DNA from: a virus
Taxonomy: Duplodnaviria > Caudoviricetes
Reading direction: 5' to 3' (one strand)
Virus record (IMG/VR): IMGVR_UViG_3300020181_000001
Span: 1 to 60,099 of that record
DNA length: 60,099 bases
The stretch's first letter is position 1. Each line of letters begins with the position of its first letter. Positions 3,847-41,625 of this stretch are shown piece by piece. The position numbers and the translations under genes are program-made. The notes below the pieces were generated by a model, which was given only the letters and a program-made list of their open reading frames with translations, ran no database searches and was not told the origin of the DNA.

Positions 3847-3875
3847 ATAGTACGGGGAGATTGATCGCATGTCAA
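3847..3875 (-). promoter_or_regulatory. Housekeeping-sigma promoter of the packaging/structural operon
   Basis: TTGACA-17 bp-TACTAT. Confidence 0.8.
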
Positions 3876-6661: not shown

Positions 6662-6712
6662 ACCTTACGCTCAGATGGGCCACACGTCTAGAGGCTGTGA
6701 TCAGGTTGTTAC
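6662..6712 (-). promoter_or_regulatory. Promoter with upstream GTnAC-N6-GTnAC-type box
   Basis: GTAAC-AACCTG-ATCAC, 6 bp, TAGACG-17-TAAGGT. Confidence 0.7.
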
Positions 6713-7891
6713 TTACGGGTTGACAGCAGTTCCTCTGCCGTCGACACAGTTGGAGCAGTACCGGTAGTTGTTGCTCCACTGTGCCCAGCCCACACCAGAC
6801 GGGGTAGCAGTGGGACCATATTCAGTCCATCGGAACCGGTTGTTAATGGCCTTCATATTACTATAAACGCCACCACGGTTTTCTAAATAGAGGTTATAGC
6901 CCCCACCTTCAAGATAGTTGTCTTGGACTGTGCCGTTGTGGATATCAGACCAAGTGGGCTGAATGAACAGCGCACCACTTTGCCATCCATTGGTGTTCAC
7001 CGGAGTAGAGTCGAGTCTGTTGCCGATGAACTTCACTGTACGGGTGTTGGCCGCATTCTTGCGGAAATCCCGGATAGTCGCTCCGTCGTGATGAGCTTCT
7101 CCGGTGTGGCGCAGTCCGCGAACGTAATTGTTTTCTGCGTACGCGTCGTGCACTGTACCGGTCTCAAAGAAAGCAATACCCGAACCCATTCCATGCACAT
7201 AGTTGCGGTACAACTTTCCGACACCGATGAAACCGTCTGAACCTCCAAGGGCATTGTCTGCCGGAAGGCTCAGACCATTGATCTCAGAATCCTTGATGAC
7301 GACATTGCCAACTGATGTTGCTCTGCATCCACTCGTGCAGTCAGTAGTTGTCACCAGGTAGTCATTGTGCTCGCCTACTCTGGTCGGCTTGATGCAGGAC
7401 TGATCGATCGTAATGTCACCATTGTAGAGATTCAGCGGTACTGTAATTCTCTGCCGATAAATGACCGTACCTCGCGCCGGACGCTGAGGACCGGTATACG
7501 GCTGAAGCTGGTCACACACCAATCCGTGTGGGGCCAGACCGATGTTTTGTGCTGTCAGCTCCCACCCTTTCCGCACGCCCGTAACAGGAGGCTGTGTTGT
7601 GGTGGTGGTCGTCGGCACCGTGGTTGTAGTAGTCGTAGGAGACGCTGTAACGGTCTCAGTCTTCGTGTGAGTCACCGTACTCGGCGACGGCCACGTTAGC
7701 TGCTTACAGACCTTGTCAGCCCCGTCTACGAACTCTCCCTCAGGACACCACACACCACGGTCGCCCGGATTTGGCAGCACAGTTTGTGCTACTACCGGAG
7801 CAACAAAAAACCCCATCGGCAACAGCACTGAGGCTGCTACTAATGGGGCGAATCTCTTTACCTTTTCTCTGATCATCACTCTTCCTTTCAT
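6713..7891 (-). CDS. Secreted protein: signal peptide, Thr/Pro linker, probable right-handed beta-helix (pectin lyase-like) domain
   Basis: Basic-hydrophobic N-terminus ending VVAQ, TTTT linker, repeated IxxN/VxDN strands (ITIDQSCI, VIKDSEING, AENNYV, VQDNYL, AINNRF). Confidence 0.7.
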   Translation of the reverse strand: MKGRVMIREKVKRFAPLVAASVLLPMGFFVAPVVAQTVLPNPGDRGVWCPEGEFVDGADKVCKQLTWPSPSTVTHTKTETVTASPTTTTTTVPTTTTTTQPPVTGVRKGWELTAQNIGLAPHGLVCDQLQPYTGPQRPARGTVIYRQRITVPLNLYNGDITIDQSCIKPTRVGEHNDYLVTTTDCTSGCRATSVGNVVIKDSEINGLSLPADNALGGSDGFIGVGKLYRNYVHGMGSGIAFFETGTVHDAYAENNYVRGLRHTGEAHHDGATIRDFRKNAANTRTVKFIGNRLDSTPVNTNGWQSGALFIQPTWSDIHNGTVQDNYLEGGGYNLYLENRGGVYSNMKAINNRFRWTEYGPTATPSGVGWAQWSNNYRYCSNCVDGRGTAVNP

Positions 7892-7907
7892 TCAACATTT
7901 GGAAAGA

Positions 7908-7936
7908 CCCCCTCATGCACGGGAGACATGAGGGGG
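7908..7936 (-). terminator. Intrinsic terminator-like hairpin closing the RNA operon
   Basis: 10-bp stem CCCCCTCATG/CATGAGGGGG followed by TCTTT on the minus strand. Confidence 0.7.
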
Positions 7937-8197
7937 CCTGGTAAGCGAGGTGGTTGTTTCCAGGTCAGCCGTACACCGTGGTCCGGAACCGTGCCCTTAC
8001 CGCAACACCAATAACGGCCGTCACCGTTAAAGGAAAGGTTGCGACCCTTTCACCTCAAGCATTTAATTAGGTGTCCGCCTAAAACCACTTACGGACTCAC
8101 TCGCCCCTAGTGCTCTTCACGCCTATGCCGGAATCCGGGTGTTAATGTTTCCATCAACAGACGCTATACACTCGTGACCTATTACGAGCTTTCCCCT
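7937..8197 (-). ncRNA. Putative structured ncRNA downstream of tRNA-Asn
   Basis: No ORF of 60 aa or more; consecutive stems including TGTTGATG-GAAA-CATTAACA, CTCGT/ACGAG, GTCCG/CGGAC, CACCT/AGGTG, TAACGG/CCGTTA, CCTGG/CCAGG. Confidence 0.5.
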
Positions 8198-8199
8198 TG

Positions 8200-8272
8200 C
8201 TCCCACACCAGGGCTCGAACCTGGGACTTACGGATTAACAATCCGCTACTCTGCCAACTGAGTTATGTGGGA
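8200..8272 (-). tRNA. tRNA-Asn(GTT)
   Basis: TCCCACA/TGTGGGA acceptor, ACTC/GAGT D-stem, GCGGA-TT-GTT-AA-TCCGT anticodon arm, CCAGG-TTCGAGC-CCTGG T-arm, G73. Confidence 0.95.
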
Positions 8273-8278
8273 TTAGGC

Positions 8279-8364
8279 CCGGGTACCGACTCAAACGGTT
8301 GTAGTTGTCAGCTTTCTAGTTACAGCGCTTAACAACCAGCGGTCTTGTTGCGTTCCGCACCCGG
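8279..8364 (-). ncRNA. tRNA-like element A
   Basis: CCGGGT/ACCCGG closing stem, T-arm-like ACCG-TTTGAGT-CGGT and extra arms; no canonical anticodon arm. Confidence 0.5.
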
Positions 8365-8409
8365 TAGTTCCTCCTCTTCCGCGCAACCGAATCGGGAGAA
8401 ACCGTTTAG

Positions 8410-8481
8410 ATGGGGAGAGTAGCCCATATGTATACGCTACTGTTAAAGAGGTCTCTGCCTTACGGCCGTGAGTCTCCCCAT
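8410..8481 (-). ncRNA. tRNA-like cloverleaf element B
   Basis: 9-bp ATGGGGAGA/TCTCCCCAT stem enclosing GCC-GTAA-GGC, AGAG/CTCT and GTAGC/GCTAC arms; 72 nt. Confidence 0.55.
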
Positions 8482-8492
8482 TAAGTTATAGG

Positions 8493-8551
8493 TGGTCCAG
8501 TATCTCCCCCTGAACCAAGGGATTTCCAGGAGGTCTTAACCTGCATCTGGA
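8493..8551 (-). ncRNA. Mini tRNA-like element C with encoded CCA
   Basis: TCCAG/CTGGA stem followed by CCA; internal AGGT-TAAG-ACCT and CCCTTG/CAGGGG hairpins. Confidence 0.45.
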
Positions 8552-8555
8552 GGCG

Positions 8556-8624
8556 CACCAGGTGAAGGAATCGAACCCTCTCCTAAGACTTTGGAGGTCT
8601 CTTGGCTACCTTAGCCTACCTGAT
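8556..8624 (-). tRNA. tRNA-Trp(CCA), atypical short D-region
   Basis: ATCAGGT/ACCTGGT acceptor, GAGAC-CT-CCA-AA-GTCTT anticodon arm, GAGGG-TTCGATT-CCTTC T-arm, G73. Confidence 0.85.
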
Positions 8625-8928
8625 AGTGGATGCCACGCGTTATACCGCATCCTCTATGATCGTATCCCTTATTCTAAAAGTTCTCGGGTGATCACAGCTT
8701 TGCCGGGGGCTCTAGTCCCGGTATTTAGTTTTTGTTGAGGCTTGGTATCCGGTGGCCTCAGCCGGAACAACTTCACATCCGGAGTGGTGGTTTCTGCGCC
8801 CTTCCGGTGGGGCTAACCAGGGAGTCACTTTGGGGAGCGTTCCTGGCTGGGTCTTGTTTCAACCCTTTCCCTTACTCCTCCCGGTTCTCCATTAGGTGTC
8901 CGGGGCTTTGGGGGCTTGTTCTGTTGTA
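8625..8928 (-). ncRNA. Putative structured ncRNA or leader (hairpin series) at the 5' end of the RNA operon
   Basis: Stems CCCGG/CCGGG, CCAGG/CCTGG, CCGGA/TCCGG, TGAGGC/GCCTCA, CCGGG/CCCGG and GGATGC/GCATCC joined by A-rich linkers. Confidence 0.5.
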
Positions 8929-8934
8929 AGTACT

Positions 8935-8988
8935 AAGTTACAGCCTTCACACGTGGGTGTCAACCCCTTGAGGTAACGGAACAGTCTC
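8935..8988 (-). promoter_or_regulatory. Promoter of the RNA operon
   Basis: TTGACA-17-TAACTT, with GAGAC-N6-GTTAC 9 bp upstream of the -35. Confidence 0.8.
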
Positions 8989-9862
8989 AGTAGAGAACGA
9001 CCACGTCAAAGGCCAGGTCTGAGCTGTACGCCAGGTCAGTCTTGCCTGTGCCCGCCGGGATGTCGAACAGGCCGACACGGTCGTTCATGATGCGCTTCTC
9101 ACCAGGGTTGCCACCTGTGCCACCGGAGTTGCTCCAGTTGTACAGCGCGTGCACGGTGATGGTTGACCCTGCCGGAACGACCTGTAACTGACACTTCTTG
9201 TGCGCCGGGATGGCAATAGTGCGGGTCTGTGCCTTACCCGGGCCTAGCGTTACCTTCATAGCGGACATATCGTAATCCTCTTCTCCTGTCGGAACCGTTA
9301 CCGCGTTACCAGAAAGCTCTAGAATTCGAGCGATGTTCAACCTACCCGGGTCCCAATGGGAGTCCGGCGCTGATAGGTGCTGGTGTCCCAGGTGGCCAGA
9401 GAAATTCCGAAGCGCACCGGCAGACAGCCGAATGGGGGAGCTGGGTGACGCAAGAATGATCCCCTCTCCCTCCCCATAGAAGCGGAGGAAGTTATTCGGT
9501 ACACCTACAGCATCTCGAATAGGCTTGACTACGTTATCAGCCAGCCACCTCAGCACCCACTCAGGCCACGTGTGGGACGCACCTGCAAATCCAACAATTT
9601 CAACCTGAATGATATGATCATCATCATTGTTGTCCATTGCGGAATAGGCAGCCAGATCAAGTGAAATGTGCTGAAGCTTTTCACCTGACCAAGGATTAGC
9701 GATTAGGTGCGGAGGATAAGACGCATACGCACCTAAAGCCCCGCTGACACTTCCACCTTCTGTGGTGTGCCAACAGAGCTTAGGCTTGTCCATGTATTGA
9801 AATGGGTAGCCGGTCCTACCTGGAAAAACATGGCGTGTATATCCCGGTAACCAGATTGCCAT
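8987..9862 (-). CDS. Endolysin, N-acetylmuramoyl-L-alanine amidase with C-terminal putative cell-wall-binding domain
   Basis: WHTTEG, PHL, IQVEIVG and GHQH...HWDPG Zn-amidase motifs; probable start MAIWLPG at 9862. Confidence 0.85.
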   Translation of the reverse strand: MAIWLPGYTRHVFPGRTGYPFQYMDKPKLCWHTTEGGSVSGALGAYASYPPHLIANPWSGEKLQHISLDLAAYSAMDNNDDDHIIQVEIVGFAGASHTWPEWVLRWLADNVVKPIRDAVGVPNNFLRFYGEGEGIILASPSSPIRLSAGALRNFSGHLGHQHLSAPDSHWDPGRLNIARILELSGNAVTVPTGEEDYDMSAMKVTLGPGKAQTRTIAIPAHKKCQLQVVPAGSTITVHALYNWSNSGGTGGNPGEKRIMNDRVGLFDIPAGTGKTDLAYSSDLAFDVVVLY

Positions 9863-9864
9863 TC

Positions 9865-10257
9865 TCACCACCGTTCCATTGTGCCCCCGTTTTCTGTGGT
9901 ATATACGGCTGTCCGGATGCCAGCGTTGGTCAACGCGGTCCAGCACGAATCACACGGGCGACTCAACCGGAGTGTACCACGTCCAGCCACACGGGCTACA
10001 TACACGACTGCTTTTCGCAAGTCAACCCACTCAGACTGTCTGATCACAGAGCGGAGAGCGACCATCTCAGCGTGCCGGGAGCAGTGATCGTACTCGTGTA
10101 TGAACTTCGGGTGATTACGGAACTTATTGGTTCCCAATGCAAGTACTGAGTTCCTGACTACGATCACTGCTCCATGGCGCTGACGACAAACAGAGTCAAG
10201 AGCGAGCTTAGCGGCCAGATCCAGCCAACTTTGATGCCTTCTGCTTAAGGTCATCAA
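9865..10257 (-). CDS. Zn-dependent cytidine/dCMP deaminase-fold protein
   Basis: HGAVIV, HAE and PCxxC (PCDSC) motifs. Confidence 0.85.
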   Translation of the reverse strand: MMTLSRRHQSWLDLAAKLALDSVCRQRHGAVIVVRNSVLALGTNKFRNHPKFIHEYDHCSRHAEMVALRSVIRQSEWVDLRKAVVYVARVAGRGTLRLSRPCDSCWTALTNAGIRTAVYTTENGGTMERW

Positions 10258-14497: not shown

Positions 14498-14526
14498 AGT
14501 GTACGCGTCGATCGTTTAGGTGTCAA
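14498..14526 (-). promoter_or_regulatory. Consensus promoter
   Basis: TTGACA-17-TACACT. Confidence 0.75.
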
Positions 14527-20014: not shown

Positions 20015-20024
20015 ACCTCCTTTG

Positions 20025-20097
20025 TGACCCTAGAGGGATTCGAACCCTCACTGGCCGGATTTTGAGTCCGTTGCCTCTGCCGTTGGGCTACAGGGTC
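20025..20097 (-). tRNA. tRNA-Leu(CAA) with short variable loop
   Basis: GACCCTG/TAGGGTC acceptor, CGGA-CT-CAA-AA-TCCG anticodon arm, GAGGG-TTCGAAT-CCCTC T-arm, A73. Confidence 0.9.
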
Positions 20098-20101
20098 TTG
20101 A

Positions 20102-20173
20102 TGTCCCGTGCCGGACTTGAACCGACTCCCCCGCTTGGTTGGCAGGTGGTACTACCAGTTATACGAACGGGAC
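20102..20173 (-). tRNA. tRNA-shaped RNA with aberrant anticodon loop (CA-ACC-AA; nominal Gly-ACC)
   Basis: GTCCCGT/ACGGGAC acceptor, D-loop with GG, CCTGC/GCGGG stem, GTCGG-TTCAAGT-CCGGC T-arm; lacks U33. Confidence 0.75.
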
Positions 20174-20380
20174 TTGTATTCATTGGCTATGAATGGGGAA
20201 GAGGCAGCCACCCTAAGGGCCTCAACACTACCTCTTCCCTCACGGCTCCTCATCCTCGGCCAGTTAACCTCGGCGCTATTTGGAGACCGGGAGACTTTTC
20301 TTGACAGGGGCACTGCCTTTCCCCTTTGCGCAACTAGGTAGTTCTCACCCCGCGTACCCAGGGATCACCTAGCGTCAAGC
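20174..20380 (-). ncRNA. Putative structured RNA upstream of the tRNA pair
   Basis: 12-bp stem 20196-20207/20228-20239; CTTGAC/GTCAAG (20300-20379) enclosing CTAGGT/ACCTAG and AGGGG/CCCCT arms. Confidence 0.45.
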
Positions 20381-20381
20381 T

Positions 20382-20459
20382 TTACTTACGTCGTGAGCAC
20401 CACGGCTCATGTCGTCCAATGCCCCCGCACTCTTCACACTCTCCAGCGAGTCCGTCCAT
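20382..20459 (-). CDS. Zn-finger microprotein (25 aa)
   Basis: GAGGAGAGATCGAA-ATG; MDGLAGECEECGGIGRHEPWCSRRK. Confidence 0.6.
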   Translation of the reverse strand: MDGLAGECEECGGIGRHEPWCSRRK

Positions 20460-20475
20460 TTCGATCTCTCCTCAG

Positions 20476-20589
20476 TTATCGTCCGGCTGGAATAGTGCCT
20501 GTACCGTGACACCTCCCACACCAACCGCCAGGAGCGTTAGGGTTAGCACCTGATCCCCCGCATGAGGGACATGGTACCATTTCCGCCAT
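20476..20589 (-). CDS. DnaJ-type Zn-finger microprotein (37 aa)
   Basis: GGGGAGATCGAC-ATG; two CxxCxGxG motifs (CPSCGGSG, CGRCHGTG). Confidence 0.75.
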   Translation of the reverse strand: MAEMVPCPSCGGSGANPNAPGGWCGRCHGTGTIPAGR

Positions 20590-20631
20590 GTCGATCTCCC
20601 CTGATCTAGTGGTCTTCCCCTTACCTGTCTA

Positions 20632-20682
20632 ACAGTACGGGGCCGGATCGTCGTTGTCCAGACCCCGTAACCTAACTGTTAT
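20632..20682 (-). promoter_or_regulatory. Promoter with GTnAC-type box
   Basis: ATAAC-AGTTAG-GTTAC, 6 bp, TGGACA-17-TACTGT. Confidence 0.75.
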
Positions 20683-21001: not shown

Positions 21002-21051
21002 ACCTTAGCCCCTGAGACCCTCGTTGTCCAGGGGCGTTATCGAGTTGTTAT
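21002..21051 (-). promoter_or_regulatory. Promoter with GTnAC-type box
   Basis: ATAAC-AACTCG-ATAAC, 5 bp, TGGACA-17-TAAGGT. Confidence 0.75.
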
Positions 21052-21204: not shown

Positions 21205-21228
21205 CTCTGTCTTGCTGATATAAGAACC
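21205..21228. repeat. 24-bp direct repeat, copy 1 (promoter -10/initial transcribed region)
   Basis: CTCTGTCTTGCTGATATAAGAACC, identical at 21507-21530. Confidence 0.85.
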
Positions 21229-21276
21229 CTAACATGAGGGGGCTCTAATCACAAGCCCCCGTTACCTCTTTGTTAT
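21226..21276 (-). promoter_or_regulatory. Promoter with GTnAC-type box
   Basis: ATAAC-AAAGAG-GTAAC, 6 bp, TTGTGA-17-TAGGGT. Confidence 0.75.
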
Positions 21277-21506: not shown

Positions 21507-21530
21507 CTCTGTCTTGCTGATATAAGAACC
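21507..21530. repeat. 24-bp direct repeat, copy 2
   Basis: Identical to 21205-21228. Confidence 0.85.
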
Positions 21531-24465: not shown

Positions 24466-25094
24466 TCGCTCCCGTCCACTAACCAGCCACGTTCGATGAT
24501 GTTACCCGCACTGTCCCTCAGCCGGTAAGCCCGCCACATCTCCGCTCGTGTCCGCTGCTCGGTAATGACACCCTTTCCCCGGTTTACCTCAACGTCGTAC
24601 GTGGTGCCATAAAACTCGAACACAGGTACCTCTGTGTCACTTTCGTCTTCAGCCGCACGGCCAAACCCGCTATCCGCGTCAAACGTAAATCCTACCGCAC
24701 CCATCTCAACTTCACGTTCACTGAGCGGACGCGTAACCGTAGCCGGGTCCACACACCTACCGCGCGGAAGCTGCACGTCTCGCGTCTCGATACCCCAAAC
24801 CTCAGCACCGCTGGTTCCATTAACACGCATACGTGATAGATACGTCTGTGCCGCGCTCTTACGCTGTCCAGACGCCAAACGTTGGTCCCTCGGATGAACA
24901 AACCTGCCCATCACCTTAGGTTCAGAAAACGGTCCCTCGGCCTCCATGTACTTGACCCACACACGAGCCTTGACGGTCGCTTGACGATGCTTGTCAAAGA
25001 GCGTCGGCCCACTAAAGGTCAGATGACATGCTGAGCAGTGCGAGGTGTTAGCCCCGGTCCATTCAGCGTCACATCCACCACACGTGAAGTTCAT
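24462..25094 (-). CDS. Zn-finger protein (FDxHR-type N-terminal domain)
   Basis: CGGC..W.G...HCSACH.TF....FDKHR. Confidence 0.75.
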   Translation of the reverse strand: MNFTCGGCDAEWTGANTSHCSACHLTFSGPTLFDKHRQATVKARVWVKYMEAEGPFSEPKVMGRFVHPRDQRLASGQRKSAAQTYLSRMRVNGTSGAEVWGIETRDVQLPRGRCVDPATVTRPLSEREVEMGAVGFTFDADSGFGRAAEDESDTEVPVFEFYGTTYDVEVNRGKGVITEQRTRAEMWRAYRLRDSAGNIIERGWLVDGSE

Positions 25095-41596: not shown

Positions 41597-41625
41597 ATGT
41601 TAGAGATGAAAATCAGCCGTGTCAA
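41597..41625 (-). promoter_or_regulatory. Consensus promoter for the Lsr2-like gene
   Basis: TTGACA-17-TAACAT. Confidence 0.75.

Follow-up and report, generated by a model that had tools for sequence, protein, structure and literature searches.

The complete virus genome analyzed here (IMG/VR record IMGVR_UViG_3300020181_000001; 60,099 base pairs (bp) with direct terminal repeats, all of which forms the window) contains an island of untranslated sequence at positions 7892-8986, the biggest gap without genes in the whole genome. With moderate confidence, we favor the interpretation that this island, which is read on the minus strand, is a lineage-specific transcription unit of two transfer RNA (tRNA) genes with long spacers, carried by a siphovirus-like soil phage. 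Since the genome encodes a tape-measure protein, a major head protein, a large terminase, a family-A DNA polymerase, a primase, and a helicase, the phage was classed as siphovirus-like. The public runs containing the stretch (nine were listed, none of them recorded as RNA) were soil and biocrust metagenomes.

The two genes specify tRNA-Trp(CCA) and a canonical tRNA-Asn(GUU). Both combined a cloverleaf and an anticodon with a score of at least 29 bits, the cutoff of the Rfam tRNA model RF00005, with ARAGORN and Rfam in agreement, and both anticodon loops looked canonical by eye. The minimum-energy fold of tRNA-Trp was a cloverleaf with a short D arm (fold z -1.23), and the cloverleaf of tRNA-Asn reached a fold z of -3.58. 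Together the genes occupy 144 nucleotides (nt), which confirmed the roughly 140 nt of canonical Trp and Asn tRNAs noticed in an earlier interpretation made from the letters of the DNA (the sequence-only reading). Neither IMG/VR nor a set of 185,579 species genomes had a tRNA matching the anticodon-arm word of tRNA-Trp, and the single match of this word in the genome collection was a chance match to non-tRNA sequence.

The same reading had described about 1 kb with no minus-strand open reading frame (ORF), and this was borne out. Between the bounding minus-strand ORFs at 8987-9946 and 6713-7891, the longest minus-strand ORF had 38 amino acids (aa), and none of the seven small ORFs in the gap, on either strand, matched PHROGs or Pfam at E ≤ 1. 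Of the RNA-strand ORFs with 10 aa or more, just one had a Shine-Dalgarno sequence, a 14-aa GTG ORF at 8360-8316 with AGGAGG located 9 nt upstream, and in the predicted fold this AGGAGG was paired within a 9-bp helix (GUUUCUCC.../...GGAGGAAC). The gap has no credible coding capacity.

A promoter of the form TTGACA-17-TAACTT had been proposed at 8935-8963, and the site was confirmed. The genome contained four instances of the architecture TTGACA-N17-TANNNT where 0.54 ± 0.73 would be expected, and none of 100 shuffles had as many as four. All four were minus-strand sites that fall between ORFs, immediately ahead of an ORF on that strand; the other three lie at 3847-3875, 14498-14526, and 41597-41625, and each precedes a minus-strand gene. 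Measured against the sigma-70/sigma-A consensus, the -35 element was exact and the spacer had 17 nt, and a generic sigma-70 scan of 7500-9300 called no promoter because the -10 element TAACTT agrees with TATAAT at three of six positions. Judged by motif and recurrence, the promoter is likely real.

In the proposed mechanism, this host-type promoter (8963-8935) would start an untranslated RNA comprising, in order, a leader of about 305 nt, tRNA-Trp(CCA), a 282-nt spacer, tRNA-Asn(GUU), a 260-nt trailer, and a strong hairpin, and transcription would most likely proceed past the hairpin into the gene, starting at about 7876, of a secreted beta-helix protein. Host RNase P and 3′-end processing enzymes would then excise both tRNAs. 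Cutting of a precursor by host tRNA-processing enzymes, which the sequence-only reading had also put forward, is a claim that we retain, because an RNA-only stretch holds two tRNAs behind a credible promoter and such processing is established tRNA biology. Since neither gene encodes the 3′ CCA, the host CCA-adding enzyme would be needed to finish both tRNAs. The leader, spacer, and trailer would be processing by-products and regulatory or untranslated sequence, and not new structured RNAs. The extent of the transcript, its processing, the read-through, and the role of the tRNAs are inferred; the features of the island and its flanks are listed in Table 1.

The mature tRNAs may either supplement decoding or stand in for host tRNAs lost in infection. 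Three sources contain the proposal that phage tRNAs counter host defenses that deplete tRNAs (PMC10264068; PMC11555353; PMC11464382), and a phage with few, specific tRNAs would fit that proposal. In contrast to a replacement of tRNAs cleaved by anticodon nucleases, there was no sign that the Trp and Asn tRNAs are targeted in the host, and the anticodon loops of the phage tRNAs look canonical. If this plain two-tRNA interpretation is true, the phage would be one more with a few acquired tRNA genes, which helps annotation and is unsurprising.

Table 1. Features of the island and its flanks, in the order of the putative transcript
Feature	Positions	Strand	Basis
Upstream flank: 319-aa protein, probable N-acetylmuramoyl-L-alanine amidase (lysin-like)	8987..9946	-	Pfam and Atlas
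Promoter-like TTGACA-N17-TAACTT; transcript start would be near 8928	8935..8963	-	Motif and recurrence
5′ leader of about 305 nt, rich in A+C and poor in U, four possible 5-bp hairpins with CCGG core	8625..8934	-	Fold z -1.23
tRNA-Trp(CCA)	8555..8624	-	ARAGORN; Rfam 31.3 bits
Inter-tRNA spacer, 282 nt	8273..8554	-	Fold z -1.63
72-nt Y-shaped fold: 8-bp closing stem, two hairpins, 11-nt unpaired junction	8410..8481	-	Minimum-energy fold
boxA-like CUCUUUAACA, unpaired, at the Y-fold junction	8441..8450	-	Match to YTCTTTAANA
tRNA-Asn(GUU), canonical	8199..8272	-	ARAGORN; Rfam 65.9 bits
3′ trailer, about 260 nt	7940..8198	-	Fold z -1.26 without hairpin
GC-rich 14-bp hairpin with weak U tail	7905..7939	-	Free energy and shuffles
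Downstream flank: signal peptide, Thr/Pro linker, and beta-helix-like domain	6713..7891	-	Translation and Atlas

The sequence-only reading had closed the unit with a 10-bp terminator hairpin at 7908-7936. The hairpin itself is real, since the inverted repeat 7908-7917/7927-7936 lengthens to 14 bp with a free energy of -25.7 kcal/mol (z -5.55), equaled by none of 200 shuffles, but its part as a terminator bracketing the region is doubtful. The loop has 7-9 nt, the tail reads UCUUUCC, a generic scan called no terminator, and the hairpin ends about 17 nt ahead of the next gene's ribosome-binding site, AGGAAG; that gene starts about 30 nt after the hairpin. No promoter-like site was found in the interval between the hairpin and that ribosome-binding site, and read-through into the next gene is therefore likely. 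A closed "all-RNA operon" is doubtful on these grounds; transcription probably continues into the beta-helix gene, and the island promoter is likely to drive that gene. The tRNA-tufB operon of E. coli is a known tRNA-mRNA co-transcript. Like it, the island places tRNAs upstream of a protein gene with no intervening promoter-like site, so that one promoter would serve both; unlike it, the island has a strong 14-bp hairpin between its tRNAs and the gene and an untranslated part about 1 kb in length.

The downstream gene is real, because 23 of 26 strain differences at 6902-7298 fell on third codon positions (arithmetic on the variant contigs). Its true start is probably the ATG at 7876, where the Atlas record of the protein also begins. 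In Atlas, the protein scored 0.92-0.93 to Actinomycetota clusters in which 35-40% of the members carry Beta_helix, which is no more than a lead toward an actinobacterial host, and no relative of the protein was found in IMG/VR.

The larger part of the sequence-only reading concerned the non-tRNA sequence, which had been described as nearly continuous stems with a 260-nt 3′ multibranch region. These stems were not above chance. None of the leader, spacer, or trailer stood out in its own fold z value (Table 1). The trailer with its hairpin had a z of -2.45, and after removal of the hairpin its value was equaled by 21 of 200 shuffles, while the whole 995-nt transcript had a z of -1.75, equaled by 1 of 20 shuffles. 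Across 50 sliding windows of 120 nt, the island had a mean z of -0.71 (own arithmetic), with three windows below -2 and a minimum of -2.36. As background, 150 coding windows of the same genome had a mean z of -0.40 (standard deviation 1.23), with 10% below -2 and a minimum of -3.85. Because these values were no better than those of the shuffles or of the coding windows, the spacer stems are what chance would give for their composition. Folding against shuffled controls had been set in advance as a test, and the spacers folded no better than the controls, although the power of this test is low.

Three tRNA-sized closed folds had also been described, and no further tRNA-like element was recovered by Rfam, ARAGORN, the T-loop scan, or alignments. 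An Infernal cmscan of 7700-9100 against Rfam (4227 families, E ≤ 10) returned the two tRNAs and three sub-threshold chance matches only. In its relaxed, intron, and mitochondrial modes, ARAGORN made opposite-strand calls, an implausible intron call, and one weak mitochondrial-mode call, none of them credible on the RNA strand. The T-loop word GTTCRANNC occurred 25 times genome-wide and, within the island, was confined to the two tRNAs. The claim of tRNA-like modules in the spacers is unsupported.

The same searches bear on two further explanations. The first is that the spacers are the remains of a decayed, longer tRNA array or contain unannotated mini-proteins. The phage does appear, by eye, to use mini-ORFs with good ribosome-binding sites near 20.4-20.6 kb, and the 14-aa ORF with its AGGAGG could be taken in the same sense. 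However, the only Shine-Dalgarno sequence is buried in the 9-bp helix and no small ORF had a family match. For decay, the lowest P was 0.036 when each of the four phage tRNAs was aligned with each of the three spacers (12 alignments), the Rfam tRNA model found no truncated match in the island at E ≤ 10, and there were no T-loop words outside the tRNAs, so this explanation is very unlikely.

The second is a single new large structured RNA of the GOLLD or ROOL kind, spanning the entire region and with tRNAs embedded in it. Phage-borne large RNAs adjoining tRNAs are known, and the island resembles GOLLD and ROOL in being about 1 kb long, protein-free, tRNA-linked, and phage-borne. It differs from them in having no large stable fold and no match to either model: GOLLD (RF02032) and ROOL (RF03087) gave no hit at E ≤ 10 across the whole genome, in a test that is weaker for ROOL because its control matched nowhere. 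No other Rfam family matched, the collections searched held no relatives, and an indel hotspot lies in the middle of the region. Taken together with the unremarkable fold of the whole transcript, these results make a single large RNA highly improbable.

More serious consideration is due to the explanation that the spacers yield stable small RNAs freed by tRNA processing, in the manner of T4 RNAC and RNAD or of 3′ external-transcribed-spacer sponges, and acting as regulators, sponges, or decoys. According to PMC3014915, the T4 tRNA region co-produces RNAC and RNAD, whose roles are given there as unknown. By analogy, the island would share with that region tRNA genes in an untranslated unit, processing by host enzymes, and co-transcription of extra non-tRNA RNA. 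It differs in having just two tRNAs with spacers of 260-310 nt, in lacking a demonstrated discrete extra RNA, and, compared with T4-type clusters, in having no sequence relation to phage records beyond tRNA-Asn. In favor of such RNAs, the leader has a composition at the genome extreme (A 32%, C 28%, U 14%) and contains the genome's top A+C window, and its possible CCGG-core hairpins are enriched, with 8 CCGG against 2.1 ± 1.3 in shuffles, although this count was made post hoc and a neighboring coding window has 7. The retention of about 850 nt of non-coding sequence in a dense genome and in variants from several soil studies, and the stability of the Y fold, point the same way. Against them stand the fold values given above, the absence of a homologue in any collection searched and hence of covariation support, the indel hotspot that adjoins tRNA-Trp, and a strain divergence from which no constraint is readable. 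Nor were sponge-type motifs enriched: GGA occurred 12 times in the leader against 9.0 expected (P 0.087) and was not enriched elsewhere in the island, and AANAANAA and A-R-N repeats had one match each, at background level. We consider stable small RNAs possible but doubtful. The claim that the remaining roughly 850 nt serve as decoys, sponges, or a large structured RNA is thus left unsupported, since this sequence folds like its shuffles and matches neither GOLLD, ROOL, nor any other Rfam family. A decoy role of the spacers found no support, and new structured or tRNA-like RNAs in them are unproven.

Returning to the two-tRNA unit, several observations weigh against it as a complete account. 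A compact phage retains about 850 nt of sequence that is neither tRNA nor coding, in what is its largest gap, and variants from several soil metagenome studies keep the island. The fold test is weak: 120-nt windows over the real tRNA-Trp scored z +0.6 to +0.85, and since these windows, and tRNA-Trp alone at -1.23, would not stand out, structured RNAs could hide in the island. The Y fold at 8410-8481 is unusually stable (-28.8 kcal/mol, z -3.45, equaled by 1 of 200 shuffles) and displays the genome's sole boxA-like word. Its z value is biased because the element was chosen from the minimum-energy fold. No other local structure in the island is better, and values down to z -3.85 occur among the coding windows. 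Finally, the read-through into the beta-helix gene was deduced solely from the absence of a promoter-like site.

The lineage-specific nature of the unit was assessed with relatives of the phage. In a blastn search against 50,697 phage records, only tRNA-Asn was matched, in 56 records and over at most 7% of the query in each. Exact-word scans of IMG/VR with the tRNA-Trp and tRNA-Asn words and a search of the genome collection with a leader word returned nothing; a hairpin pattern searched in IMG/VR hit six loci, all unrelated. Relatives of the amidase-like flank protein were found at one IMG/VR locus and five metagenome loci (28-54% identity), with no nearby tRNA and no similarity to the island, and in one of the loci (L002) the ORF next to the amidase homologue begins after about 80 nt. 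The terminase relatives (56-62% identity) had only two small terminase-adjacent genes in common with the phage and likewise showed no resemblance to the island. The tRNAs were absent from all eight terminase-linked loci, all three long metagenome loci, and L002, and none of five related records, two of them complete, matched RF00005. Because these loci and records carry no tRNAs, we regard the island as recently gained in this lineage, within a part of the genome that is hypervariable. As the island is a singleton, claims of new structured RNAs would have to rest on transcript data or on relatives.

Variation within the lineage was examined by aligning contigs of four soil runs to positions 6700-10000. 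In one run (X4) the island was present with nine substitutions over 8343-9333, and in contig 14 of this run all 16 gap positions fell at 8527-8549, an indel hotspot just 3′ of tRNA-Trp in the first 30 nt or so of the spacer. As the gaps of this variant contig all cluster there, the inter-tRNA spacer appears to tolerate change. Over 8042-8361, the X4 sequence had 18 substitutions and 10 gaps, a divergence of 5.6%, and along successive parts of the neighboring gene it diverged by 25%, 6.5%, and 1.7% (both by own arithmetic). In another run (X6, record 27), the trailer had diverged by 5.8% with three gaps and the leader by 2.4% with 14 gaps. Since this divergence is mosaic and patchy, and the differences tabulated site by site end ahead of the island, constraint on the spacers cannot be inferred from it. 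For X4, it amounted to about 1% over 8343-9983 versus 1.7-25% in parts of 6700-8361, and the pattern suggests a recombination boundary within or beside the island.

The junction of the Y fold raises the possibility of an additional mechanism. The boxA-like word CUCUUUAACA is the sole match to YTCTTTAANA on both strands of the 60 kb, belongs to the island's RNA strand, and is unpaired in the 11-nt junction, with a hairpin on either side, in both the minimum-energy and the centroid fold. The motif was found in 98 of 20,000 shuffles of the island's 851 non-tRNA nucleotides; for the whole genome, chance would supply 0.68 matches, and 51 of 100 shuffles had at least one. The site agreed with 10 of 11 positions of GYTCTTTAANA (PMC5725501), a gamma-proteobacterial consensus that may not be that of the host, and with 10 of 12 positions of UGCUCUUUAACA (PMC13753749), an E. 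coli consensus to which the same applies. Other boxA-like words in the genome lie inside coding sequence, for example at 24991-25002.

If the word is functional, the island could be an antiterminated unit in the style of bacterial ribosomal RNA (rrn) operons, in which CUCUUUAACA would load host NusB/S10 on RNA polymerase, shield the 1-kb RNA from Rho, and carry the polymerase past the hairpin into the beta-helix gene. This explanation is compatible with the two-tRNA unit, to which it would supply an extra mechanism. In PMC2724277, the rrn layout is given as boxB-boxA-boxC, with which a site exposed between hairpins would be consistent, and PMC13753749 describes BoxA complexes as blocking Rho and interfering with intrinsic termination. 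Likeness to rrn antitermination (NusB/S10, NusA, NusG, and SuhB, acting in leaders and 16S-23S spacers) further extends to a long untranslated RNA with the element downstream of a tRNA (PMC2724277, PMC13753749, and PMC5725501). On the other hand, the motif was picked post hoc, following 8-10 other ideas for motifs, and its number in the genome is within chance. The phage site has a C for the first consensus G, the position altered in the lambda boxA5 mutant (PMC2724277, Table 1). It occurs as a single copy, about 480 nt past the promoter and outside the leader. Actinomycetota is just a lead to the host, and the B. subtilis boxA consensus already differs from that of E. coli according to PMC13753749. 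We therefore rate such antitermination as improbable. Also unlikely is its fuller form, in which the island would be a phage copy of a bacterial stable-RNA operon, with a nut-like hairpin-CUCUUUAACA-hairpin on an 8-bp stem that recruits the Nus complex, blocks Rho, and reads through the 3′ hairpin into the beta-helix gene, while the 72-nt Y element persists as a stable RNA. If the element does work, the phage would have borrowed the host rRNA read-through machinery for untranslated genes and a downstream protein gene, and would provide a simple example of long untranslated phage RNAs evading Rho.

Several lesser features of the island and its flanks were recorded. The island sits between a probable Amidase_2 lysin gene and the gene of the secreted beta-helix protein. 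For the 319-aa lysin candidate, the Pfam Amidase_2 match (E 0.084) stayed below the cutoff, the Atlas feature score was 0.94 with 194 features common to Amidase_2 clusters, and structural rows also matched Amidase_2, from which the protein is probably an Amidase_2 lysin. On the minus strand, 8038-8077 and 8856-8902 have in common the exact 12-mer CGGACACCUAAU, followed 16-23 nt on by a 12/14 match to GAAAGGGUYGMAAC in the same order; this motif pair had no match in IMG/VR. An internal duplication of leader and trailer, considered for the common 12-mer and colinear 14-mer, was rejected with a local alignment P of just 0.036, and 12-mers common to the island and the rest of the genome are frequent. 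The plus strand carries, at 8701-8733, a terminator-like hairpin that has a T-rich tail, lies antisense to the leader, and closes a 58-aa ORF running antisense over tRNA-Trp. A plus-strand reading of the gap was also discarded: the ORFs of 52-65 aa antisense to the tRNAs had no family match, and terminator-like sites, among them the one scored at 8701-8723, were not above chance, at 3 against 1.7 ± 1.4.

Elsewhere in the genome, a second tRNA pair was located at 20024-20390 on the minus strand, preceded by about 215 nt of leader sequence without ORFs. The pair consists of tRNA-Leu(CAA), which scored 54.5 bits, and a "tRNA-Gly(ACC)" with a weak score of 31.9 bits. The latter has the 7-nt anticodon loop CAACCAA, with A at the position of U33, a residue that is almost universal in tRNA anticodon loops. 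Just upstream of this pair, at about 20375-20593 on the minus strand, are two mini-ORFs of about 27 and 36 aa with CxxC pairs and good ribosome-binding sites, zinc-ribbon-like by eye. An exact 22-nt repeat, TTCTTATATCAGCAAGACAGAG, for which no occurrence was expected, has two minus-strand copies, at 21205-21226 and 21507-21528, both shortly ahead of small genes. GC hairpins lie near 20640-20680, 21010-21040, and 21232-21262 on the same strand, and several in this area are followed by GTTAG; the related word GGTTAGC occurred 12 times against 5.2 expected. The 22-nt repeat and the GTTAG hairpins are probably phage-specific regulatory sites.

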